A stretch of DNA of 63,491 nucleotides, filler included, from Globobulimina sp. (Eukaryota), in NCBI GenBank assembly GCA_003354225.1. It is 48 parts of 48 records of this genome, joined end to end, with 100 filler letters (N's around TTAATTAATTAA, not from the genome) between each part and the next. Parts side by side here need not be neighbours in the genome. Positions count along the whole stretch, not along the records: positions 7,957 to 9,182 come from PIVH01020605.1; 47 more parts are not named here. One strand, written 5' to 3'. This document shows, piece by piece, positions 3,980 to 63,431 of the stretch; position 1 is the stretch's first letter; each line of letters begins with the position of its first letter. A program made the translations under genes and the position numbers. The notes under the pieces were generated by a model. That model ran no database searches. It had not been told where the DNA came from and saw nothing but the letters and a program-made list of their open reading frames with translations.

Positions 3980-4741
3980 GGAGTTCTATCCTCGCAAATT
4001 ATTTTGAAAAAAGGCGACGATTTACGCAAAGATGCGGCGTGTATGATGGTGTTCAAATTTATGAATGAGATTTGGAAAAGAAATAACATAAATTATGACG
4101 GTAAAACCATAAATATATTGACTTACAAAGTGATTCCAATGACTCGCTGCTTTGGCTGCATTGAATTGATCGCAGATTGTGTAGGTTTGCGCGATATAAA
4201 CAGTATCAAAAAAGATTTGATTGACGATACTGCAGAATATGGCGATGATTTGTATATGAATAATCTGATCGCCTCGGCAGCAGCGGCCTATGTTTCATGT
4301 TTGATCATTGGAATAAGAGACCGCCATTACGACAATCAGATGATACGCAAATTCGATTATAAACTGTTTCATATTGATTTTAATTTTATATTTGGGGAGA
4401 AAGCGTCGTTGGACGCATCGGAACTTGGTATTACATATAGTTTGGCAAAGATCATGGACACAAAATATAAAATATTTGTCGAAGTAGCAGTGGCAGCACA
4501 TCAAGTGTTGCGAGAGTGTTGTCAGGAATTGATTGATTTTGCTATAATGGCATTTTCCTATGTGTATCAAGCCAAAATTATCAGGCAATAAATAAGCAAG
4601 AAATTGCGGTTAAATTTGGATGATTGTAAAGCGAAAAATTGGTTAAGGAAGAAATTATTGAAAGCACCGCAAAATACACAAACTGTGTTGAAAAATACTA
4701 TTCATAAAATTGCTTTGTTGAAAAATACACAATGGGATTAA
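3980..4741 (+). pseudogene. PI3/PI4-kinase catalytic domain (C-terminal part) interrupted by one in-frame TAA at 4589-4591
   Basis: KKGDDLRKD, GIRDRHYDN, LFHIDFNFIFG; the same frame continues after the TAA as ISKKLRLNLDDCKAKNW...KNTIHKIA, typical of PI3K C-terminal helices, to TAA 4739-4741. Confidence 0.8.
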
Positions 4742-6530: not shown

Positions 6531-7956
6531 NNNNNNNNNNNNNNNNNNNNNNNNNNNNNNNNNNNNNNNNNNNNTTAATTAATTAANNNNNNNNNNNNNN
6601 NNNNNNNNNNNNNNNNNNNNNNNNNNNNNNTGGAAGGTAATTAGGTAAGTTTTAAAGTTTTTTTTTAAGATGTTTTTGATTTAATTATTTTCAAAAAATA
6701 AGGAGAGACCAATTACGAAAATTACATAGCTCATGCAAACAGTTGATATTTCTTTGATTAGTCGTTTACTGGCATAATTATTAACGCTACAACTTTTATT
6801 TCACAATGCAACGAATTGTAGTATTTCTCTAACAAGTTTAATTTAATTTAAATAGTAAAATTTGTCTCATTTTGTCATATTGTAAAAGGCGAACAACTCT
6901 AAAATTATTAATCAAGTCAATGTATATGCATATGCTACATATCCTGACATTTTATTTTGACTCATTTTTGTGTGCATAAATAAACGAATTACAACAAATA
7001 TTGTAACCAAACATAATGCATTCCAAAAAATGCAATCTATTGATAACAATATCATTAAAATCTTACATGTAATTGAACTGCTTCTGATCTCTAATTGAAT
7101 AGCAAACCATCCATGGAATGGGCCAGCACTCAATAAAGAAAATACGCAGGTCATGGATGCTAATATAGTCTGTTTTGTATATATTTATCGGAAAATCATA
7201 ATCTTCAAATATCAGAAAAAACGTAACGTAAAGAAATATGCCAGATCTTTGTAATTTCGTTGTTTGGTAAATTAAAAAGCGATATGATATAAAGAACTAT
7301 GTGTAATTCATAATTATTGACAGTTAATTCAAAGAACAGTTGCAAACAACTTAACCGCATATGTTGCCAATGCCATTACTCCAAAACAAACTAGTACAAA
7401 ATTCAAAATATAAACAATTATAACAAACCTGCTACAAAAACGTAACTCAGAAATGACGATCCCAAGGTGTTGATATGTCTTTGTTTGGTTGCAAATAAAA
7501 TTATTGTTGTGATAAAGTCCATAACTGATGATGCTAATGTTCCGTACCATTGGTATTTAAATATTCTTGCTGCAAAAATGGAAGTCATATGCAGACCATC
7601 TTCCATTGGGGAAAAGTGAATAACAGGACACCAAGACGGAAATGTCCGAAAATGCCTTTGTATATGTCACCTCTTAATAATAATTAACATGATTTTACAT
7701 TAAAATCAAATGATCATACCATGGAATTGTGTCATTGTCACTTTGCAAAACGTCATCCGCATATTCTTCATCATATTTTTGCTCCTCAAGCATTTTAACT
7801 AGAGTTTTTGGTTTAACTTAAGTTTGTTTTTTGTTAATTGTGTTAAATTGGATAATNNNNNNNNNNNNNNNNNNNNNNNNNNNNNNNNNNNNNNNNNNNN
7901 TTAATTAATTAANNNNNNNNNNNNNNNNNNNNNNNNNNNNNNNNNNNNNNNNNNNN

Positions 7957-8961
7957 GATCCACACACCATCTACAACAAACCGGTATTGATATGTGCCGG
8001 GATCAAGAACGATACTCTTTGACCATGTGCCGTCTCCATTACGCTTCATGTCAGATTCTTTGGCCGGGTTCCAGTTATTGAAATTTCCTACAATTTTAAC
8101 GGAAACCGCTTTGGGAGCATGGAAGGCAAACTGCTGTTTTGCCTTTGTTGGAAAGGATAACGACCAGTCCTGTTCGACAGGTTTTTCTACCGGTCTTTTT
8201 TCTTCTGCTGTGACTTCCTTTGCAAGGGCCATATAGTCTCTGAAGCCCTGAGTTTTTTGATTAAAATCCACGATGGATTTTCCAAAACCTGCGGCTTCCT
8301 TCAGTTTAACATTCAAATTAACAACGGTTTTAAACTTGGAGCCATTAAAATGATTGTTAATATCATTCAGGACCTCTTTTGAGATTCGTGTTCGCCTATC
8401 ATACATGGTTGCAATAACGTTTACCTGAATTTTATGCCCGGTTTTTTCCCGGACCATGTTTATTATCTCCAGCAGTTTGCTGATTCCATGCAGGGAAAAC
8501 AAGCTCATTTCAATTGGAACGATTACTTCTGTGGATGCAATGAGCGCGTTAAACGTCAGCAGTTCGAGACTGGGCGGACAATCTATTAGTATGTAATCAT
8601 AAATTCGATTTAAACCGTCAATGGATTCCTTAAGTCTGGACTCTCTGCCCGCCACCCCGGACAAATGCTGGCCAAATGTGCTTAAGGATATGTTTGATGG
8701 CACCATATAGAAATTTTCAGCCACTTTAATGGTTGCATCATCAAGGGATGGTTTAACACCATCGGAGATGCAAAGGGTGTCAAACACCGTTTTTTCCAGA
8801 TCACCGGAATTGATGTTTAATCCTACGGCTGAATGCCCCTGGGGGTCCATATCGATAAGAAGTACGTTTCGCCCTTTATGGGCCAGGCATGCTGATAAAT
8901 TAATTGCTGTTGTTGTCTTTCCACACCCGCCTTTTTGATTGGCAATCGAAATAATCCTCAT
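7957..8961 (-). CDS. Bacterial ParA/Soj-family ATPase fused to a C-terminal CBM48 (AMPK-beta-type glycogen-binding) domain, 3' truncated
   Basis: Deviant Walker A NQKGGCGKTTT, A' LLIDMDPQG, Walker B DYILIDCPP, TMYDRRT; C-terminal GNFNNW...GTW...LDPGTYQYRFVVDGVW; ATG at 8961 with Shine-Dalgarno; intronless. Confidence 0.92.
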
Positions 8962-8967
8962 TTTACA

Positions 8968-8973
8968 CCTCCC
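8968..8973 (-). promoter_or_regulatory. Shine-Dalgarno GGGAGG for the ParA-CBM48 gene
   Basis: GGGAGG 6 nt upstream of the ATG at 8961 on the minus strand. Confidence 0.8.
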
Positions 8974-9067
8974 GTTGTTAATGAAATTGAATTTATGGTG
9001 CCGGGTCATCGTTATTTTTGCGAATTCATTTCTGCTGGTCGGTTCGGGTCGGTCTTGGAATCATACC

Positions 9068-9109
9068 AAAAAACCTCCAATGGATTATGAAAACTCCCAT
9101 GGAGGTTTT
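9068..9109 (-). terminator. Intrinsic terminator-like hairpin upstream of ParA-CBM48
   Basis: Minus strand AAAACCTCCATGG...CCATTGGAGGTTTTTT: inverted repeat followed by a T6 run. Confidence 0.6.
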
Positions 9110-9659
9110 ATACGAGTAGTTTTTGAACCCCTTTCATCATATTATATTTACAATACAGAGGTTTAAAATTTAAAGACAGATANNNNNNNNNNNNNNNNNN
9201 NNNNNNNNNNNNNNNNNNNNNNNNNNTTAATTAATTAANNNNNNNNNNNNNNNNNNNNNNNNNNNNNNNNNNNNNNNNNNNNACAATAACAAAAATCTGG
9301 AAAGATGAAAATTGCGTTTTGTATTGTTATGGCTTGTGTTTGTGTATTCATCTTCACTCAAATCGATCTGACTGTTTATATTGTTTGTGTTTTCGGTGAA
9401 TTTATAAGAGAAACAGATTGCTTTGTATTGAGCATGCTCAACACAAAGCAATCTGTTTTCTCGTGTATATTCACCGAAAACACAAAAGAGTCCAAATAAA
9501 ATATTGGAGTAAACCAATCAAACCGTGCAAGGATACCTTCATCATTATGAAGTGCAAGGATACTTTCATTATGAAATAATTATAACTTTAAATTTATGTT
9601 ACTGTTACACTTATATCTTGTAACAAAAACATAGAAATAATATAAGGTAATATATATAG

Positions 9660-10508
9660 TTAATGTTCAATTGCTAAAACCTTTTGAACCATTTTCTTTT
9701 TTGCTTTGCTCTCCCCCACCAATATACCATAATGCTGTGATAATATATCCCATTCAGTATGATCGCCATCCCTTCGATCGGGATGTGCGTCCAATGCAAA
9801 TTGCTTAAATCTTCGTCTTAATTCTTTTTTATTAAATATTCTCTTCTTCTTAATGTCTCTATATTGATAATGGAAATATTTCAACGCCTCTTTGACGGCA
9901 TCTTTTCTCGCTGCTTCTTCGCCATCAGGAAAATAATTTTCATATAAAAGTGCTGCTCCTTTACCACAAAGAAAACCAAGTATTGCACCAGCCACAACAC
10001 CAACAGCTGTACCTAAACCAGGACCAAATGCAGTACCAATAGCAGCACCTGCTTTTGCACCACCTATCATGCCACCGAATGCCGCTGCATTTCTTACCAC
10101 TATTTTACCAGTTAATCGTAGCCATTCTTTACCAGATATTTGTCCCGTTCCCCATCTATATCCATTTATTGCCATTTCCGCCAATGATACAATTAACATA
10201 GTTGCTCCTCCTGCATTTAAAACATTTTTAGTAGCAAATACAGCTTTTCCTCCTGCCTTTGCCGTAAATTCAACTAATTCCGTGTATAAAACAATTCCGC
10301 CGAAACCAGCTGCCATTACACTTGGTGCTTTTTCAATATATGGCATAACCGCATTAAATCTCTCCACTCCAATCATTGCCATTAGCATTTTTTTGCCCCA
10401 CTGTTGTAGTTAATATATATATATATAATATCACATAACTGATATAAATCAAATTACATATATTAATGTTACATAACTGATGCTTTATCATCATTTTGTT
10501 TTGCTTCC
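9660..10508 (-). CDS. Glycine-zipper membrane protein with C-terminal DnaJ (J) domain; intron 10401-10477; 5' truncated
   Basis: GMIGGAKAGAAIGTAFGPGLGTAVGVVAGAILG; KELRRRFKQFALDAHPDR (HPD); phase-0 GT-AG intron restores the frame. Confidence 0.75.
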
Positions 10509-11053
10509 NNNNNNNNNNNNNNNNNNNNNNNNNNNNNNNNNNNNNNNNNNNNTTAATTAATTAANNNNNNNNNNNNNNNNNNNNNNNNNNNNNNNNNNNN
10601 NNNNNNNNTACTGTATCATGGCTTGCGCGACAGCCCCAAAGCCGTAACATGGCTGAATTCACCCAATGCACTAAAACGGACAAACTTTGCTCCCCTGATG
10701 AACGCAGCAAGGAATGAAAAGAAAAGAAATGTTGTGCACATGTGTCGTGACTCATCAACTACCATACCATATTTTGTTACGACGAAATTCTTTTTTGTTA
10801 CAGTCGATAATGCTTCGTTCTAATATTATCATTCCTTGTCCGTCTAGAGGTCAGATACATAGTTATGAAAGATGGTCCTACCACAGAGTTGTTGGGTACG
10901 GGGAATTACTTTTTAACCGATTGGAAGTGAATTGCTAGCTAATCATTCAAAGCCAGTATAGAAGTGTCCGATTAGGTTGCTACCCCAGTGGTTTCGGTAA
11001 CGAGGGATTCAATCCACACAACACAGCGGCATTTCTCCAAACTGATCGGGAGT

Positions 11054-11268
11054 GTCATAATTACTAGCTAATTAGCATAGATCTGCTTGGTCAGCCTAGG
11101 CGGGGGGTCGGAGTAGTAATTTTCGAGGGGGTCGACCATTTTTGGTCAAAAAAGGCAAATTTTTCCAGTCTGAGGGTCTGTCTGGGGGATGGGTTGGGCC
11201 GGTCAAACGCTAAAAGTCGGGTACCCATACCCCCACCACACCTATGCTAATTAGTGCTAATTATCGAC
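11054..11268. mobile_element. MITE-like element with imperfect terminal inverted repeats, within an intron
   Basis: Arms 11054-11080 and 11242-11268 share CTAATTAGCATAG and ATAATTA in inverted orientation around a GC-richer core. Confidence 0.5.
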
Positions 11269-11497
11269 TTTTCTTTTCGTCCATAATTTGGTCAACAAGT
11301 AACCCATTTGGCTGAAACCTTTTTAACATGTTGACAACCATACATACATGCCTTTGTGCTCTTCGAGCAGTTTGCTCTGGTCCATTTATGTCACAATTAT
11401 TTAGTTTTCTTAATTCTTATTCGACAAAAAACATCGGAAGTCAACATTCCTTTACTCTAGCAATCGCGTGCAGTACATTAATTATAAATGTTTTCAG

Positions 11498-11662
11498 ATG
11501 TTGATTGTGACTCCTGAAAAATGGGATGTTGTGACACGTAAATCAACTGGTGATACTGGACTGTCGATGTTGGTTAAATTATTGATTATTGATGAAGTAC
11601 ATTTGTTACATGATGATAGAGGACCTGTCATTGAAACATTAGTTGCTAGAACTCTTAGACAG
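11498..11662 (+). CDS. ASCC3: Single internal exon (165 nt) of a Ski2-like helicase ASCC3/Slh1
   Basis: ttttcag|[19 protein letters not shown]...[28 protein letters not shown]|gtacat; phase-0 AG and GT boundaries. Confidence 0.85.
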
Positions 11663-12074
11663 GTACATACTATTTTGTCACTCCTCAAGTGTGTTTGGTC
11701 GAATTCGACGGGGGAGGGGGATTTGGCCTCGACCGTGGATCGCACAAAAATTTTTCAAAATCGACTGATTGCAAAATTGCAATTTAAGGGACATATCTTT
11801 ATTACATTACTACAATATAATTAAAGATAAATGNNNNNNNNNNNNNNNNNNNNNNNNNNNNNNNNNNNNNNNNNNNNTTAATTAATTAANNNNNNNNNNN
11901 NNNNNNNNNNNNNNNNNNNNNNNNNNNNNNNNNCGACTCGATCGCGAGCTCGACGTCATTTCCCGCCAAGGATATCCGAATTATGCATCGAATTTTACAC
12001 TTTAAACTCTCTGTTTTTGTGTTGTGTGCAAAGTTGACATTGTGTTAAAGTTTGTTGTTGTTGTTTAATTTTAA

Positions 12075-13158
12075 GAGTGGTACAAAAAACGTTTTGCTGC
12101 TACTCACTCGCTATCCGCTAAAAGACCAAAGACATCCAATTTCATCACAGAAACCAATCTATTGGACAAATGCCTTGGTACCAAAGTACAATACATATCA
12201 CATTTAAGAAATTGGGTCTTTTATTGTGTCACCCTAAAAGCGAACCCTTTCGCTTTACCTACAAATCCGTCTTTAGCGCTTTTCTGGATTGCGGACAGGA
12301 TCGAACAAGCACGAAATACTAATTGTATCCGTCAAGCCCAATCTATGCTGCTATGGTTGCATCAAGCAGCAGATATATCCTCTATTTTTAACTTCGACAA
12401 CGAATATAATCGGTTTAAGTCCGCAGCCATGAAGCGATTTGATACTCCATCCGATTCCCGATTGCCTCTCCAATTAAAACACCTGACCCGTTATACTTTA
12501 CATATGAACTGTGTCATTAATAACTATTCAACCATTCCATTGGATGATTTATTGAAAGTACTTATCATTCAAATGTACTTTTTTACAATGTCAAGGCCTT
12601 CGGAGTTATTACTCTCTCCATATTCCACCACCAAAAGAGGTGTACTGTTCAAACACTTGAAATTCTTTAAACCAAATCCTACCAAACCATCAACTCATTT
12701 TGTACGTATACAAGTTGTCTCGCATAAATCCATGAAGTCCCTGAATGATTCCAAATTGTTATATGTGGGCCACTCTTATTGCAGCGCAACAATCCATTCC
12801 AATAAATCCTGTCCCTGTAAATTACTAAACCCATTGCGATTATTACAAATATATTTAACACGAAGAAAGGCACTGTTCTCTTCCCTCCATAGCAATGAAA
12901 GTATTCGCAAAAATAAACTCCGACTAACTTCCAACAACAATGTCTTTGTTTGGTCAAATGGCAAAGTAGTAAAAACAACTTCCCTCTCTGCGATAATTAA
13001 AGAAGTTGTTTCTGTCAATTCCAAATATATTCTCGAGCCAAAACGTTATTCGTCGTATAGTTCCAGAATAGGTGGAACCACTAGAGCCTCCCAAGTAGGT
13101 ATCGCACACGGCATTATTCTCAAATATGTTGGCTGGAGTGACTCCAAATTACCAGACA
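12075..13158 (+). mobile_element. Tyrosine recombinase of a DIRS/Ngaro- or Crypton-like eukaryotic element, 3' truncated
   Basis: Box I FFTMSRPSELL, Lys region SHKS, box II YSSRIGGTT, VGWS; the catalytic Tyr would lie beyond the contig end. Confidence 0.8.
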
Positions 13159-13258
13159 NNNNNNNNNNNNNNNNNNNNNNNNNNNNNNNNNNNNNNNNNN
13201 NNTTAATTAATTAANNNNNNNNNNNNNNNNNNNNNNNNNNNNNNNNNNNNNNNNNNNN

Positions 13259-14152
13259 ATGATGAACGCACTTAGACTTGTTATTACTAGGTAATAATTC
13301 ATTATATTTATGTAATAATTCATTATAATCTTTATCCATTTCCTTTAACTTATCTTTACTTTTTTGACTATCATTATTAGTCAACGTCTTTATATTTAAC
13401 ACTAATTCTTCATTTTCATCATTTAACGATTGTAATAATATCTCATATTCAATTCTTTGCCTATTCATAGCCTCCACCAACATATCATTACCAACCTTAG
13501 GCGTCGCTGCACTTTGCATCCGCGAATATCGGTCATATCTCATACTGTTTGAAGTAGTTATAATAGTCTGCTCATCCTCATCATCCTCATCCTCCTCATC
13601 CTCCTCAACTGATACACACAACTTAGCATTTTCATTGCCACCGATATAGAGATTTGAATCATTTGATCGTATTCGTGGTGCAAACGTAAACGTATCCATA
13701 TTACCAATTGCATCATAAAGTGCCGTCGTCGTTGGCGAGTTCGAGGGTGCGTCCAATGGAAGCATGCCTATTGATATCATGTCAGTGTATTCTGATACCT
13801 TTAATGTATTTTCGCGCGGTAGTAAGGACCGCGGGGTTGACGGGTCGTAAACTGTTGTGGCTGCCGCTGCGGTCAATGATTTCTTATAACTGAGCAACGA
13901 GGATTGCAATAACTGTATCTCCGTCATTAAAAATTGATTTTCAGTGGTTTGTTGTTGATATAATGTTGTTTTATTTTTATTTTCTTTTGCGAGTTTACCT
14001 ATTTTTTCCTTTGTATTTTTTAATTGGTATTCATATTTTTGGTTTATTTGTGTGATTGTTTGATTTTCTTTGGTTAAATGGATTATTTGTTTCGTGTTTC
14101 TTTGTAATTTTAATAGTAATACTTGGTTTGTACAATGTTCGTTTTCTAACAT
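13259..14152 (-). CDS. Low-complexity coiled-coil hypothetical protein (eukaryotic)
   Basis: Long ORF with heptad Q/K/E-rich segments and an acidic EEDEEDEDDEDE tract. Confidence 0.5.
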
Positions 14153-18929: not shown

Positions 18930-19783
18930 TTAATTCAACAATTTAATATTTCTCATCAATTTTAATTGAAGTCCAATTGTATTGACACCAATTAATTTTA
19001 ATGAATCTACATTTAATTCCTGTACAGTTTGCATATCATCGATATCATTCTCAATAAACATATCATAAACCTTTTCCGGCAAATTGCATTTTTCCAACCA
19101 TACTTTTACTTTCTTTTTTTCCACTTCTTTCTGATTAATATTCACATCATAACCAATTCTATCCTTATTTGTTTTATTCCGATGACACTCCAGATGCAAT
19201 GCTTGCAAATTCTTCCTATCATTGGTACCGCCCTCATGCACCGGCGTAATATGATCGATCTCAAAAATTCCTGGTAACCGTTTCTTGCAACACGCACATT
19301 CCCAGTTCTGCTCATCTCCCGCAATTTGCAATCTAATTGATACCGGAATATACCGTTTCATTTGCATTTGAACCCATTCATTGTCATCACTTATCACATC
19401 TTTATTATCTAAATGTACCCAATATGATTCTTCTTCATCTTCCCATATAAATTCTACTTTTATCTGTCCATTATCTTTCTCCTTAACAATGCATTTAATC
19501 CATCCTAATTTCTTATATTTTTTTTTATTTTCAAAACTTATTTTCAAATTTAAATATACAGTGTCTCCAATTTGTAAATGATTCAATCGATGTGCGGGTC
19601 GCGTGGATATATATTTATATTTTGCAAACTTCGCTAATTCCTTTTCTGCATAATCTGACCAAATCGTATCGTCAATGTCCAAATATTTTATTCTTAAATC
19701 ACTGCCTCGTTTATTGATAATTTTAGCTTCCATATATTTTCCATTACGATATTGATGGTCAATAAAATCGCCTTTTTCTAAAT
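18930..19783 (-). CDS. Tudor/Agenet-like repeats + HNH endonuclease + SAM domain protein, 5' truncated
   Basis: LEKGDFIDH...AKII...LRIKY and LQIGDTV...WIKCIV...IKVEF...YWVH (Tudor-like); CACC...FEIDH...GGTN..NLQALHLECHRNKT (HNH); VKVWLEKCNL...F.ENDID...LKLIGV..IG.QLKLM (SAM). Confidence 0.85.
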
Positions 19784-37108: not shown

Positions 37109-38333
37109 AAACTATGAATAATTAGATCCGACACGCAAGTTCTAACCAATTCATCTCTGGTGGTCAATATATATTGCTCCACATTTGATTCTTTCTGTGA
37201 TAAATATTGCAAAAACCAGGAACATAGATCAGTATTGTCTTTGTATACAAATTCCAAATAACTCATAAATTTCGTAAGCACTTCATTTTTTCCTGCTGTT
37301 CGCGAGACATATTTAAGACACGTTAACGTTGCCATTTTTGTAATATGTAATCCATCATCCTTTTCATCTTCGTGCTGTTGATATTTTGCTGCAGTGCGCG
37401 TTAAATTGTATAAAAACTCAAAATATGGAATATTAAATAATTGAATATCACGCATTAACGTGAAATTATTCGCTAATATTAGCCGTGCCAAATCTGGTAC
37501 TTTATCTGCAATTAATTGTTGCAAATCTATCCTCTCATTCTTCTCTTCAACTAATTGTTTTCGTTCATAAATTAAACCATACGCACAATCTGCTTTATCT
37601 TCATTGGTGACAGAATCAACTCCGCCAAACGTAGCATCATCCAAATTATTTATATCAAATAATTTAACCAAACCGTCATTAAATTCCAACCATTCATCAG
37701 GATCCCGAATATACGAAAAATAGTGTCCATTTTCTTCATCACCAGAATGGATTATAATTCCTGACAACTCATATGTATACGCACAACATTCACTATTTTC
37801 TTTCATTTCAAACCCAGATATTCCTGCTTTTGTAAACTGTTTTAATTCGATTTCCAAAGGAAATTCAAACCGATCGTACACTTTTTCCGACTGAAATGTT
37901 TGGAAATTTAATCCAAATCTCTTCAGCTGGAAAAATATTTTCTTTTGTAATTTCCCAATAACTTCACGTTTCAAAGTATCACATTTGGTTTGACATTTGT
38001 CACAGTATACACCTTCTAACTCTTCTGTGGCTACATACGATTTCAAAGCTTGTTCTAAATGGGTTTGGTCTTTAATACTCACAGATACCTCCATACATTC
38101 TTGCGTTCGTTCCCTAACATTGCCACAACCGCCTTTGCAAATCATTTGTGTGCAAATTTCAACACCGAAATTGTGCCATAATAAATCCGCAAATTTCGTA
38201 TTTTGTAATCCGTTGTGGATTCTTTCCGTCAAAATATTAAAAAATTCATGAACGTCTTTTTGTGTTCGCACATCGACGACTTGGCCTGTTTCATCTTTCC
38301 AACTCTTGCAAAAAGGCAATGTATCATACGTTT
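37109..38333 (-). CDS. Ubiquitin-specific protease (USP9/24/34-like) catalytic fragment
   Basis: QKDVHEFF, LKRF...RFEFP, YELSGIIIHSG...GHYFSYI, WLEFND. Confidence 0.9.
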
Positions 38334-42407: not shown

Positions 42408-43328
42408 AGCGCGGAAGACAACTATTTCAAAAAACAGCTGCAATGGAGACACAACAACGCGGCCAACATCGACCGCGTCATCTTAACTTCCAACGTCAGC
42501 AACAGCAAACGCAGCATGCCGATGATATTGCGGATCATCACCAGAGAGCATCGCCGACCAGAATTGGGCGATAAGTTCAGTTCTCGACATGGCCAGAAAG
42601 GCGTATGCGGCCTGATTGTGCCCCAAAGGGATATGCCTTTTACGGAGGACGGCATTGTGCCAGATTTGATCATGAATCCACACGGCTTCCCGTCCAGAAT
42701 GACCGTGGGCAAAATGATCGAGTTGGTGACGGGAAAAGTGGCGGTGGCCTCGCAATCGCACCGCCTGGGCACCGGCTTTCTGGCTGGCCAGCAATTTGGC
42801 GATGGCTCGGCTTTTGGCGCGAGGGACATTGTGGAAAATGTGTGCAGACATTTGATAGGTTTAGGATACTCGTACTCGGGCAAAGATTACTTGACGTGCG
42901 GCCTGAGCGGCAATGCGTTGTCGTCGTACATCTTCATCGGACCTGTTTTCTATCAGAAGCTGAAGCATATGGTCCGCGATAAGATGCATGCGCGGTCCCG
43001 AGGGCCCACTACTTCGCTGACCAGACAGCCGACGGAGGGCAGGTCGCGCAAAGGCGGGCTGAGAGTGGGCGAGATGGAGAGGGACTGCCTGATTGGGCAC
43101 GGTGCGAGTTATCTGTTGTTTGAACGGCTGATGGTGTCGTCGGATAAGTATCAGTGTCAGATTTGTAAGGAATGCGGATTGATTGTGTCGCTGCCAAACT
43201 ATTGCAACTATTGTCAGTCTGGTTTATCTTTGTCGAAAATCAACATTCCGTATGCGTGCAAGTTGCTGTTTCAAGAGCTAATGAGTATGAATATTGCTAC
43301 AAAGATACAGTTGACGGATGAGTTTTAG
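42408..43328 (+). CDS. POLR3B: RNA polymerase III second-largest subunit (RPC2), C-terminal part
   Basis: [78 protein letters not shown], clamp Zn cysteines. Confidence 0.92.
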
Positions 43329-43731
43329 TGGTTGTATTCAACAAAGTGGATATCGATCCAGTTGATGCGCATCGGAAATAAATGCAATGTTTGAAAGATG
43401 TCCTTGCACAATGCACATAGATTGAAGCTAATCCAGAGACTGGATATGATGTTATTAATTATTTTGTCATACATCAGCTAGTAACCTCGAACATCCTCAA
43501 TTTTACTGTTTTTTGAAAACTCAAGCTCGATCATTAGTTATCATTTTTACAATGGCGCATCCCCACAATCTGAACATATATGTTTCCTTCCTTTTGTTTT
43601 CAACACAGAAATGTCCACACGCAACCATTAGNNNNNNNNNNNNNNNNNNNNNNNNNNNNNNNNNNNNNNNNNNNNTTAATTAATTAANNNNNNNNNNNNN
43701 NNNNNNNNNNNNNNNNNNNNNNNNNNNNNNN

Positions 43732-44955
43732 TCATCGGTGCCAATTGCTTTGTCCGTATCCAACTCTGCCGCACAGTTTCTGACTTCATAGAAATAGATT
43801 TCAGAATTTAGTACATCGTCTGGATTATCTGTGAGATTGGGAATGTTTTGATGTACATCATTGATTATAAAGTTTGCTGAATGATCAATTATCTGATGAT
43901 GGTTAATATGGTTTGTATTAAACGGAGGTTTGGGTGGGTTGCATATGTGTTGGTGAATTAATGTAGCTTGTTCAGTGGGGTCGTTGGTTGTTTCTTGATT
44001 TGCATTAATTATGATTGGCGGGATTATATTATCAGATTTGTAGTTTTTCTGTTTAAGCGCTCTGTAAAATATGCGAGAATGGGATTTTGCATGTTGTATT
44101 TGGTGGTTTAGTTTCTTGTTGTACGCTGCTTTTGCTTTCCGTATCTCTCTTAATTTCTCGTTTCGGAGTTTTTTATATTTAAAGTTTGCTTGGTCCAATT
44201 CATAAATAAAGATTCTTTTTCTGATGGAATCATTTGGAGCATTTTTTACTTTTTTCTTGAATTTATTCTTTTTATTCTCCCATTTTCTCGCTTTCTTTTG
44301 TAACTTTCCTATTTTATTGTTCCACCATGGTTTATATCCATTAAAATATGCTTTTTTCCCAATGGTAAGATTTGCAACATCCGTAATTGTTTGGGATATT
44401 GTATCAGTGAGGGTATTAATTGTTTTGTTTTGTAGCGCTGTGTTTGCTGGGTTTTTTCGAAGGAGTTTGGTGTCGTGGTTTATAAATTCTTGCAGCTGAT
44501 TTGTTCGTTTGGTAAGTAATGCGGTGTAATTCTTCCATTTCTTAGAGTTAAGATTCCAAACTCTACGATTATAATTAAATCCATATGCCTGTTCCAATTC
44601 TATTTCAAATTTAATTAAATAATGGTCCGACAATTGGGGTTTGTGATGATTGATTGCTTGCCAATTCGATGCTGTGGTGTTATTCGACGTGAATGTAATA
44701 TCTATATTAGATTCATGTGCATGATTGGATGGGTCGCATCGGGTTGGTGTTTTTGAATTTATTATTTGGAACTCCGAATGGGACAAAAGGGTCACAAAGT
44801 CATTCGATGCTTTATTGTGTTTTTTGCTCCCCCACATTTCATGGTGGAGGTTTAAATCACCGCCGAGGATCACTTTTTCTCCTTCATATTTAAATTGAAA
44901 TAATTGTGTTGCTTCGCCATATTTTGGAGGGCGATAATAAGAATAGACTGCAATT
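43732..44955 (-). mobile_element. Non-LTR retrotransposon ORF2 fragment (APE endonuclease C-terminal half and linker towards RT)
   Basis: YYRPP, ILGGDLNLHHEMWGS, TPTR, IDITF, SDH, KPWWN, KAIGTD. Confidence 0.88.
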
Positions 44956-47705: not shown

Positions 47706-48927
47706 ACAAACAAAGGTGTAGTTAATAGTATTGTGGGGCTAAGAAATTTAGGGAATACATGGTTTATGAATACATCGATTCAAATATTATCGCAATCGCC
47801 ATACATTACACGTTATCTAAGCAAACGTGCGAAATTATCCAAAACAAAGGGTGGTGGTGCAGTCGGTTGGATATATAACAGTGCGCGTTCATACGTTGGT
47901 TATGGTAACAATGCTGATGATTCAATGTTGAATGCATGGACTGAATTATGTGATATTATTTACAATCAGCAACGATCATATTCCATAACATTAAAATCAA
48001 TTCCTGCAAATATTAGAGACGCATTAACTAAAATAGATAAGAATTTTGGTTCAGGTCTGCAAGACGATGCAATCCGTTCATTAGATTACATGTTACAAGC
48101 ATTAGATGAACAAATTGAACAGGAAATTAACAGTAAGAAAACTGGTCATGACATTATATACAAAGATAATATTCAAATATTCCATGGTCGAACATTAACT
48201 GAATTAGGACAAGAGGAACAGAGACATATTGGTGAGTTATTACGAGATCACAATCCAAATAATTCCATTTTGCGCAAATCATTTGATGGCATTGAACGTA
48301 TTATTTGCCAATGTTTAGAATGTAATACAATATTTCAACAGTATGCTACTTTACGTATTGTAGATTTGCCTGTTATTAGTCATGAAATCGTGTTGGGAAA
48401 TATAAATATTGTAACAAATAATAATTGTTATCGATTACCGCAAACATCAATGTTACAGCATTGTTCACTCAATTTAATAAAATATCATGTTGGGCAGTAT
48501 TTGTCCTCTCAATGTCAACATGCCGACAATCATAATTATGAAAACATGAAAATTGTAACAATCTCTGCAAAAAATGGTAAAGTGCAATGTATAAATAAAG
48601 CCAATTGCAAATTATCGGAATTACAATCAAATGATTGCATATTTGTCTTAGTTAGCAATAAACCCAAACACCAATGTCATAAATCGAGTGTATTGCAATT
48701 TAATTTATCTGTTGGTCAAACTAATAATCAATTGCAATTCACACAATTATCCGTTAAATATAATGATTATAATCCAAACGTTAGTTCTCTCCATCAACTG
48801 ATAAATAATGAAATTAAACAACAAGAAAATAACAATTGCGACGATATCGAAGAAAAATATGATTATTATATTGATTATGATGGACATATATCATATTATA
48901 ACAGAAATGAACCAAATCAACCAATTG
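47706..48927 (+). CDS. USP-family deubiquitinase-like protein with the Cys-box nucleophile replaced by Trp
   Basis: VGLRNLGNTWFMNTSIQIL (canonical GNTCFMN); QDDA; CLEC. Confidence 0.8.
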
Positions 48928-56864: not shown

Positions 56865-56986
56865 ATAATTTNNNNNNNNNNNNNNNNNNNNNNNNNNNNN
56901 NNNNNNNNNNNNNNNTTAATTAATTAANNNNNNNNNNNNNNNNNNNNNNNNNNNNNNNNNNNNNNNNNNNNGGTGATCCGAATGAT

Positions 56987-57928
56987 TTGCATTATTTTAA
57001 TGGCAAATGGGATAATTTAAATGCATTTTCTTTATGTTCAAACATGAAACGCAACATTGTGCATAATTATCATTATATATTAATGGAGGATGAGAGTCAT
57101 AGTAACCATCATGATATAGATTGCAATGCTTTTCTATTAAATGGAAATAATAATAAATTAATTGTATGTGATTTCGATGAGTATAATGTTAATGACTTAT
57201 ATTTTATTTCCTTATTTGCTGTTCCTCAAAACAATATCTTCAACAATAAATCATCAAAAATATACTTAAATTCACAATGGTTTGACATTAATGTTGCTGA
57301 GCAACAGAAAAGTACTTACAAGCAATGCGAATCATTATTATCACAACAATCGTCAACGCATACTTTGTATGGAATATTTGGGTGTGACATAGTAACTGAA
57401 TCACCAACATCTGAACCGAGTATCCATCCAACATTTAATGTATCGGGAAATGGCGAAGATGATAATTCAATGGATCGTTATCATTCAGATTTTATGACCA
57501 CAATCACTGTATTTTTGATTGTAACATTGCTTATATTGACTATAGTGGCTTTATTTGGATATCGTTATCGAAACCAACAAAAAAGAAAACACCAGTTCGA
57601 CACCAGGAAAATAATAAAAATGGAAACAGAAATTGCTGATTTAAAATCTACAATGAATAAGAATCAAAGTAATATTAATAAAGCCGTAAAACCGCCATCT
57701 TATTTGTCGAGTACAGACAGTGATCAATGTTTAGTTTGCTGTGATGCAGTGGCTAATATGTTTAATTATCCATGTGGCCATGTCTCTTATTGTTCAAACT
57801 GTTCAGATGATGCATTAAAAAATGATAACAAATGTCCAAACTGTAGAGAGATTATAAAAGAATGCAAACTTATATTTTCTGGAGGATTTAAACAAAATTC
57901 TGTTTATCAAAATACAATAAAAGACTGA
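56987..57928 (+). CDS. Single-pass membrane protein with a cytosolic C3HC4 RING
   Basis: TM ITVFLIVTLLILTIVALFGY; CLVC...YPCGHVSYCSNC...CPNCR. Confidence 0.85.
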   Translation: MHYFNGKWDNLNAFSLCSNMKRNIVHNYHYILMEDESHSNHHDIDCNAFLLNGNNNKLIVCDFDEYNVNDLYFISLFAVPQNNIFNNKSSKIYLNSQWFDINVAEQQKSTYKQCESLLSQQSSTHTLYGIFGCDIVTESPTSEPSIHPTFNVSGNGEDDNSMDRYHSDFMTTITVFLIVTLLILTIVALFGYRYRNQQKRKHQFDTRKIIKMETEIADLKSTMNKNQSNINKAVKPPSYLSSTDSDQCLVCCDAVANMFNYPCGHVSYCSNCSDDALKNDNKCPNCREIIKECKLIFSGGFKQNSVYQNTIKD

Positions 57929-62430: not shown

Positions 62431-62868
62431 TTGACGATGCAAAATATTAACATTTTAGATCCAAACTTAGGTGCAACTCATCCAACATTAGTGCCATGGG
62501 TGCAAGGAATGAAAAACGCAGGTTATTCGAATGAACAAATACAAATGTATTTTAGACAGCAAATGACGGCACACATGCAAGGACAACAAGCAACTCAACA
62601 ACAAGCAGCACCACAACCCATTTCGAAGCACAGTATTAAATTGACGATGCAAAATATTAACAATATTAACATTTTAGATCCAAATTTAGGTGCAACTCAT
62701 CCGACATTAGTGCCATGGGTTCAAGGAATGAAGAACGCAGGTTATTCGAATGAACAAATACAAGTGTATTTTAGACAGCTACTGGCGGCACACATGCAAG
62801 GACAACCACCTCCTCCACCACCACAACAACAACTTATACAAAATCACTCTGTTCATCGTATGTACTAA
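62431..62868 (+). CDS. Protein with two near-identical repeats of about 55 aa and Q/P-rich linkers
   Basis: TMQNINILDPNLGATHPTLVPWVQGMKNAGYSNEQIQ.YFRQ starting at 62431 and 62641. Confidence 0.55.
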   Translation: MTMQNINILDPNLGATHPTLVPWVQGMKNAGYSNEQIQMYFRQQMTAHMQGQQATQQQAAPQPISKHSIKLTMQNINNINILDPNLGATHPTLVPWVQGMKNAGYSNEQIQVYFRQLLAAHMQGQPPPPPPQQQLIQNHSVHRMY

Positions 62869-62924
62869 ACACAAAACGCAAAATACTTTCATTTGTTCCA
62901 CATTCGGAAATTTTTAAACAGTGC

Positions 62925-63431
62925 TTGCTTGATTTTTGTACAGCACCAAGTCCTATTGATAATACAGGTGAAATCGCACAGTTTGCATCCAAGTCACCAA
63001 AGAATGGAAAGCGTATTAAAAGGAAAAGGAAATTGAGTGAGTTGGTTGATGTTGAGAATGGAAGTCCTGCCAAAAAGATTAAATTAACAAATTATAAACA
63101 AGAAAATGCAGCATTGAGGCAGGAAAATGAAATATTAAAAAAGCGGATAGATGCGATGGAAAACAATAATTTACATCCAATGAATTTTGATGAATTGAAT
63201 CAGCTGAAAATAAAAATGCAAAACAAAATAAAACTGATTGAAGAAGCGGAGAAACAATTAATTGATAATACATATAAATGTGTTGCCTGTATGGATAATG
63301 CAAAAAATATATCATTTGCGGATGGCTGTACTCATATTGCACTATGTGACAAATGTGAAGCATCGTTAGAGTGTAAATTGTGTCCTTTGTGTCAAACACC
63401 ATATACAAATGTCAAGAAAATAAATTTCTAA
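62925..63431 (+). CDS. Coiled-coil + C3HC4 RING protein
   Basis: Basic NLS-like KRIKRKRK; CVAC...GCTHIALCDKC...CPLC. Confidence 0.85.
   Translation: MLDFCTAPSPIDNTGEIAQFASKSPKNGKRIKRKRKLSELVDVENGSPAKKIKLTNYKQENAALRQENEILKKRIDAMENNNLHPMNFDELNQLKIKMQNKIKLIEEAEKQLIDNTYKCVACMDNAKNISFADGCTHIALCDKCEASLECKLCPLCQTPYTNVKKINF

Follow-up and report, generated by a model that had tools for sequence, protein, structure and literature searches.

A 63,491-nucleotide stretch of DNA from the Globobulimina sp. assembly GCA_003354225.1 (the window) carries, at positions 7957-8961 on the minus strand, a bacterial gene in which a Soj-type ParA ATPase is joined to a carbohydrate-binding module (CBM) of the CBM48 family. 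The gene is almost certainly a real member of a ParA-CBM48 family, and represents a truncated new member of a family already described in print. From the conserved sequence features we tentatively propose that the protein may tether or position glycogen, a function whose probability we place close to even but short of it, and the evidence favours a system acting on glycogen over a defence system. Directly visible in the sequences are the arrangement of domains, the conservation of residues for catalysis, DNA binding and sugar contact, a downstream partner gene in relatives whose product begins with a ParB-like peptide, and the linkage of the fusion gene to genes of glycogen metabolism.

Translation of the minus strand gave a single open reading frame of 335 residues that has no stop codon and is cut at the contig end. 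An earlier account made from the DNA alone (the sequence-only reading) had described this frame as a complete Soj-type ParA followed by a CBM48; both domains were recognized by Pfam, and every motif it quoted was present. The start codon, an ATG at 8959-8961, is supported both by a Shine-Dalgarno sequence read 6 nt upstream (GGGAGG, 8968-8973, minus strand) and by the same MRI start in the relatives. On the same strand, residues 1-250 (8212-8961) form the ParA domain, residues 251-272 (8146-8211) a charged and poorly conserved linker with a mean pairwise identity of 0.14-0.47, and residues 273-335 (7957-8145) an AMPK-beta-type CBM48 whose C-terminal part is absent. The Pfam matches were to AAA_31 over residues 1-179 (E = 2e-54; 184.7 bits, cut-off 27), to AMPK1_CBM over residues 285-334 (E = 2.1e-9; 37.9 bits, cut-off 26.8), and to CBM_48 over residues 275-330 (30.2 bits, cut-off 22.4). 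Because the contig ends, the AMPK1_CBM match spans only 11-57 of the 85 profile positions. Relatives that are complete measure 354-389 residues, mostly 357-358. In the window the contig stops at 7957 before the frame does, so that the CBM lacks roughly 22 residues at its C-terminus and the following gene is absent.

The ParA part is nearest to Myxococcus xanthus ParA (PDB 8RAY, E = 4.8e-50), and also resembles the Soj proteins of Thermus thermophilus and Helicobacter pylori. To the chromosomal Soj/ParA proteins of known structure (PDB 8RAY, 2BEK and 6IUB) the ATPase domain is 36-43% identical. It carries the deviant Walker A motif NQKGGCGKTT with its signature lysine K10, D37 and D39, and the Walker B residue D127. 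Across 37 diverse and 120 close relatives, K10, K15, D37, D39 and D127 vary little or not at all, and the ATPase looks active by this measure. The NCBIfam equivalog for ParA partition ATPases, NF041546, scored 117.5 bits, below its cut-off of 180. The sequence-only reading had held that the basic DNA-binding residues of Soj are kept, and the alignment agrees: R190 and K219 of the window protein align with R189 and R218 of a 253-residue Bacillus Soj, the residues for non-specific DNA binding in the B. subtilis protein (PMC3778016). Non-specific DNA binding thus looks intact, judged by these residues.

In the CBM, all 37 diverse relatives share F294, W297 and G322; W313, Y326 and W334 are each kept in 36 of them, and 32 have K or R at position 327. 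The AMPK beta CBM structures carry FNNW, QYKF and DGQW motifs, and in the alignment W297, R327 and W334 fall on these. We presume W100, K126 and W133 of AMPK beta1 to lie there too, given the spacing of 7 from the lysine to the tryptophan. In AMPK beta, the W100G and K126Q changes abolish glycogen binding, and W133L weakens it (PMC6274970). The AMPK-beta-type pattern of sugar contacts noted earlier from the sequence is thereby borne out, and the module, which keeps the glycogen-contact pattern, is a putative glucan binder. It shares with the AMPK beta CBM48 structures (PDB 1Z0M, 1Z0N, 2F15 and 4Y0G) a match above the Pfam threshold and aligned FNNW, QY(K/R)F and D(G/D)xW motifs; it differs in having R in place of K126, in the extra tryptophan W313, and in being attached to a ParA rather than to a kinase scaffold.

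The model of a full-length relative, 57% identical to the window protein, has a mean pLDDT (predicted local distance difference test score) of 84. In it the ParA domain is confidently predicted, residues 256-272 form a disordered linker (pLDDT below 50), and residues 274-357 make up a confident beta-sandwich. The modelled ParA part superposes on Soj/ParA structures with TM-scores (template modelling scores) of 0.89-0.94 on the target, and McdA is more distant, at ranks 17 and 19 among the fold matches.

Relatives were sought in a collection of 5.8 billion proteins, from which the best 120, at 61-73% identity, were listed. All 120 listed carry both PF13614 and PF16561, and the few named ones come from Desulfobacterales-type metagenome genomes. 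Contigs representing one genome per species gave 13 loci, spread over several phyla, that align with residues 1-334 of the query; Omnitrophota, Planctomycetales, Vicinamibacterales and Thiogranum are among the record titles. A sample of 401 Desulfobacterota genomes, taken as the phylum of one Desulfobulbaceae genome, yielded 23 genomes with a match at E ≤ 1e-70, of which 17 reach residue 334; one class with nine genomes has the fusion in seven. The corresponding figure for Omnitrophota was 181 of 301 genomes at E ≤ 1e-65, nearly all with a single copy, and most of the 150 matches listed there span the whole protein, though many of the genomes are small and incomplete. The fusion is therefore recurrent across bacterial genomes, in line with the sequence-only reading, and its interpretation as a chimera unique to this contig was ruled out by the recurrence of the two-domain architecture.

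A Logan contig of sequencing run X1 is identical to the window over 8062-8837 and so bridges the junction of ParA, linker and CBM, but it does not count as independent support because X1 may be the source sample. Marine metagenome runs contain fragments 90-99% alike. No RNA run was among the listed sequencing runs with matching sequence. A search for whole genomes of the window protein's own clade (above 60% identity) found none above 48% in the Desulfobacterota sample and three narrower searches; because of this, the gene context of the close clade rests on three metagenome contigs, those of loci L111, L113 and L114. The Desulfobacterota also contain a sister ParA (loci L095-L110, for example L100:1501-2496) that is 45-49% identical over residues 1-255 and has an acidic, probably disordered tail in place of the CBM. 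Both this paralogue and the CBM fusion are present in nine genomes.

Open reading frames were called and clustered in 42 fusion loci, in 37 of which the fusion gene itself was called. Three arrangements recurred. In the Omnitrophota-type order, a porin gene, a GH57 gene and a gene for a single-pass membrane protein of about 190 residues with a beta-rich domain precede the fusion, which is followed by genes for a membrane protein of about 108 residues and a lysine-rich protein. In the Desulfobacterota-type order, the fusion is followed by a ParA-like protein of about 280-316 residues that lacks the P-loop, and then by a protein of about 190 residues. In the window protein's clade (L111, L113 and L114, whose fusions are 57-69% identical to it), the next gene encodes a protein of about 182 residues belonging to no Pfam family.

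Outside the Omnitrophota-type arrangement, the partner proteins mostly begin with a ParB-like peptide, for example LGRGLEDI followed by S-x-x-F-L-S, with the consensus MEKKSLGRGLEDI. A regular expression for the first motif found the peptide in 13 of 31 same-strand downstream genes, compared to 1 of 501 other open reading frames. Leaving aside the Omnitrophota-type loci, 18 remain, and in 15 of these the gene next to the fusion bears it, 13 by regular expression and two by eye. In the control loci, the ParB proteins that follow canonical ParA start likewise, with LG(R/K)G(L/I)xAL, in 16 of 34 cases by strict regular expression and in 31 of 34 by eye. A ParB N-terminal peptide of this kind activates ParA. 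Alignment of 35 partners from the window protein's clade showed K4, L6, R8 and G9 to be invariant, followed by a variable middle and a conserved C-terminal domain of about 70 residues; a search of a protein atlas gave no usable match. The sequence-only reading had envisaged an ATPase with the adaptor built in; the frequency of this downstream gene speaks against an adaptor-free system.

The same reading had expected no adjacent parB, and here it held. Pfam found no ParB domain in the neighbours of the fusion gene in 29 relatives' loci, and all three carrier genomes that were checked possess a separate parA-parB operon with ParB_N, HTH_ParB and ParB_C domains. Because carriers also have an ordinary parAB operon, the fusion is an extra, orphan ParA, and the possibility that it is the chromosomal Soj was ruled out. 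It shares with Soj/ParA and Spo0J/ParB the Walker motifs, the DNA-binding residues and a partner peptide like the ParB N-terminus, but differs from the Soj/ParA-ParB-parS system by the extra CBM48, by the absence of an adjacent ParB with ParB_N and helix-turn-helix (HTH) domains, and by coexisting with canonical parAB genes elsewhere in the genome. With McdA/McdB and other orphan ParA cargo systems (PDB 6NON and 6NOP) it has in common an orphan ParA ATPase, a small, largely disordered partner encoded adjacently, and nucleoid-binding residues. McdA is only 23% identical, however, and differs further in that the signature Walker A lysine is kept here and that the cargo-binding module is on the ATPase instead of on the partner.

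Several further features of these neighbourhoods were observed. The upstream membrane protein of the Omnitrophota-type loci (cluster c1; L003:9401-9958, L006:9380-9976 and 13 other loci) starts with D/E-I-Y-E/D-H-L-A-K-I/V-Y-L, which, compared by eye, is similar to E-D/E-I-S-H-L-F-L-S, the latter half of the partner peptide; by this resemblance, the membrane protein could dock ParA at the membrane. A gene for a MerR-type HTH protein (cluster c14) lies directly 5' of the fusion at L012:5146-5598, L191:7481-7957, L203:7474-7947, L205:7856-8239 and L202:9189-9665, and the partner in L200 has an HTH after its peptide. The partner at L111:7546-8106, from the closest locus (fusion 69% identical), is set apart from the other 34 aligned partners by a cysteine-rich insertion within its variable middle part.

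Genes for glycogen enzymes lie close to the fusion in loci of differing arrangement. GH57 is encoded two genes upstream in L002 and L003. In L114, whose fusion is 57% identical to the window protein, a GT5 glycogen synthase gene stands straight 3' of the partner gene. L197 encodes a 1440-residue Glycogen_syn-DUF3417-Phosphorylase protein (9364-13686, minus strand) directly upstream of the fusion, as well as a GT5 enzyme, and L200 has GlgB and an amylase nearby. A CBM48-only protein is encoded near the fusion in both L192, along with a GH57 branching enzyme, and L193. These free-standing CBM48 or AMPK1_CBM proteins are short, with 97 residues at L192:6373-6666 (minus strand) and 119 at L193:9124-9480 (plus strand), and each is encoded no more than three genes away from the fusion.

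As a control for this linkage, seven of these glycogen enzymes were used as tblastn queries against the fusion loci and against canonical ParA loci. Of the 42 fusion loci, 12 had a glycogen enzyme gene no more than 3 kb away; of the 136 canonical ParA loci, none did, and a single one had such a gene within 6 kb. The queries had themselves come from fusion loci, five of the 12 matches are self hits, and eight further GH57 matches constitute one conserved synteny group, so that about five independent glycogen arrangements remain. At the level of whole genomes the association does not discriminate: GT5 glycogen synthase is present in all 21 carrier genomes, but also in 175 of 201 sampled Desulfobacterota. 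The co-occurrence with glycogen genes suggested by the sequence-only reading thus stands as local clustering, in about five independent arrangements, and is uninformative as a genome-level pattern.

The simplest mechanism is tethering to, and distribution over, the nucleoid, because every conserved part has a place in it: the ATPase, which looks active, the residues for DNA binding, the two CBMs that a dimer would carry on flexible linkers, and the ParB-type peptide of the partner. An ATP-bound ParA dimer would bind the nucleoid non-specifically through R190 and K219. The two CBM48 modules of the dimer would hold alpha-glucan (glycogen) particles, which would in this way be tethered to the chromosome and spread over it. 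The small partner encoded downstream would then dock by its N-terminal ParB-like peptide and bring about ATP hydrolysis and release. Through repeated binding and release, the particles may become distributed along the nucleoid, and both daughter cells would inherit them. Glucan binding, stimulation of the ATPase and the positioning of granules are each predicted here from the conserved features described above.

Besides the limits of the linkage control, several points weigh against this proposal. In textbook ParA systems the stimulator is on the cargo, whereas here the ATPase itself bears the cargo-binding domain, a design that does not readily explain how a gradient would form. The position of K219 is occupied by T in 23 of the 120 close relatives. 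The window's own copy lacks the last 22 or so residues and the partner gene, and the AlphaFold2 model of a partner from its clade is poor (pLDDT 40.4), leaving the C-terminal domain unmodelled. The Omnitrophota-type loci add a porin and a membrane protein whose beta-rich domain lies outside the cytoplasm, as indicated by sequence inspection and by the available text of a preprint (Li, Burroughs and Aravind, bioRxiv 10.64898/2026.10.19.760177); these therefore indicate envelope glycans as much as cytoplasmic granules. Finally, that preprint, the sole paper describing the architecture, predicts a role in immunity. In sum, the interpretation first drawn from the sequence survives in respect of the fusion, its conserved residues, its orphan status and its linkage to glycogen, but not as an adaptor-free system, and the preprint had described the architecture before, under an immune reading.

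A serious rival, though in our view an unlikely one, is that the CBM48 serves as a sensor of glycogen status (its amount or branching) that switches the ParA dimer cycle, leading to the recruitment or release of enzymes or to the regulation of another process, or that the protein is an enzyme scaffold. The linkage to glycogen genes applies equally to such a role, and the AMPK CBM is itself described as a glycogen sensor (PMC2642990, PMC6274970). Genes for MerR-type regulators directly upstream in the five c14 loci, together with the HTH in the L200 partner, are also in keeping with regulation. A pure sensor, however, would have no need of the Soj DNA-binding residues, which are kept; the peptide of the partner is of the ParB type, and no effector domain is fused to the protein.

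The role predicted in print, that of an anti-phage or anti-selfish-element system, appears improbable. According to the available text of the preprint, the CBM would sense infection-linked carbohydrates or glycogen depletion, and ParA would multimerize to limit infection. The authors place the family in a conflict branch, with inactive ParA and inactive restriction-endonuclease partners that correspond to our clusters c6 and c11. The patchy distribution in Desulfobacterota (17 of 401 genomes) fits this role, as does the fast divergence of the partners, which we judge from their falling into several clusters. The preprint also calls the CBM rapidly diverging. Our measurements do not bear this out: the sugar-contact residues are invariant, and the mean pairwise identity of the CBM compared to ParA was 0.68 versus 0.77 among the 120 close relatives and 0.41 versus 0.47 among the 37 diverse ones, with the linker down to 0.14.

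Nor did the measured surroundings of the fusion bear out a conflict context. Among 116 proteins from 20 loci (two fusion proteins and their neighbours), PADLOC in its 2023 version, which is blind to new systems, gave no true match to a defence system. It returned only generic matches, to ClpB, PolA, OmpA and MotB, methyltransferases, HTH proteins, a response-regulator cyclase and GlgB. The flanking genes are of the housekeeping kind (PNPase, S15, FtsK, def and fmt, ATP synthase b and DNA polymerase), and the fusion is nearly always single-copy, occurring in 181 of 301 Omnitrophota genomes even though these are incomplete. The linkage to glycogen enzymes likewise argues against immunity.

The system of Li et al. 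is nonetheless the same in architecture, with a ParA domain and a C-terminal AMPK1_CBM. As given in the available text, its first extension, a single-pass membrane protein that is encoded upstream and bears a beta-rich domain, equals our Omnitrophota-type arrangement, and its second, a degenerate ParA and a small nuclease-like protein, equals the Desulfobacterota-type arrangement. The window protein's clade differs by a third type of partner, the protein of about 182 residues with a ParB-like peptide and a C-terminal domain of no known family. Neither the ParB-like peptide nor the glycogen-gene neighbours appear in the preprint's section on ParA-CBM (section 29). We found no experimental work in the literature on a ParA linked to glycogen, CBM48 or granules.

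That the contig is a chimera made in assembly, or that the gene was transferred into the eukaryote, is hardly credible: although the contig is just 1226 bases long, lies amid eukaryote-type contigs and differs from most of them in GC content, the same two-domain architecture recurs in more than 120 independent protein clusters, close fragments occur in marine metagenomes, the X1 contig bridges the junction (though X1 may be the source sample), and the gene is preceded by a Shine-Dalgarno sequence and by a terminator of bacterial type.

The setting of the gene within the window is of little help to its interpretation. The window (1-63491) consists of 48 pieces of 1224-1226 bases each, ordered by length, taken from unrelated contigs and joined throughout by spacers of one composition. 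The contig of the gene occupies 7957-9182 only; an artificial spacer at 7857-7956, read from the sequence as N44, TTAATTAATTAA and N44, ends it on one side, and a second spacer at 9183-9282 lies on the other. Because the window is made of joined separate contigs, neither the sequence before 7957 nor that after 9182 belongs to the context of the gene. Its contig has a GC content of 0.41, compared to about 0.30 for most neighbouring pieces. The gene is bacterial, nearest to Desulfobacterales-type metagenome proteins, and comes from an organism sequenced together with the eukaryote; being a truncated gene on a stray contig, this copy adds little to what its relatives reveal. Upstream of the gene, at 9070-9109 on the minus strand, is a terminator-like hairpin followed by a U run (-19.9 kcal/mol, z = -4.16, with none of 200 shuffles folding as well), which probably ends the preceding transcription unit. 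A scan of this contig for promoters and terminators gave no more sites than were found in shuffles.

The remaining pieces are mostly AT-rich, and wherever Pfam recognized anything in them it was of eukaryote type: GNT-I (2-1066), PI3/PI4 kinase (3980-4588), ubiquitin hydrolases (UCH, 37111-38331 and 47706-48926), a LINE-type endonuclease (43734-44954), RING fingers (56972-57925 and 62775-63428), HNH plus SAM (18933-19781) and a eukaryotic-type carbonic anhydrase. Several pieces are open from end to end, over 407-408 codons. The piece at 42408-43631 has the highest GC content (0.476) and encodes RNA polymerase Rpb2 domains 6 and 7, from either a bacterial rpoB or a eukaryotic gene.

To our knowledge, how glycogen is placed and inherited in bacteria is largely unknown. 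In E. coli, glycogen is reported to collect at the poles and to be divided unequally (PMC12706056, PMC4836754). A ParA that carries its own module for binding glycogen would make a simple machine for placing the stores and passing them on, and the family now has two competing predictions, immunity from the published analysis and glycogen handling from the gene neighbourhoods. It is possible, if somewhat doubtful, that many bacterial phyla have a dedicated glycogen partition system, in which a ParA with its own CBM, reset by a partner with a ParB-type peptide, would spread the carbon stores along the chromosome and ensure their even inheritance; this too is read from sequence comparisons. If true, the printed prediction of an immune role would be overturned, and the family would provide a ParA with a cargo adaptor of its own and a positioning system for glycogen particles, each the first of its kind.

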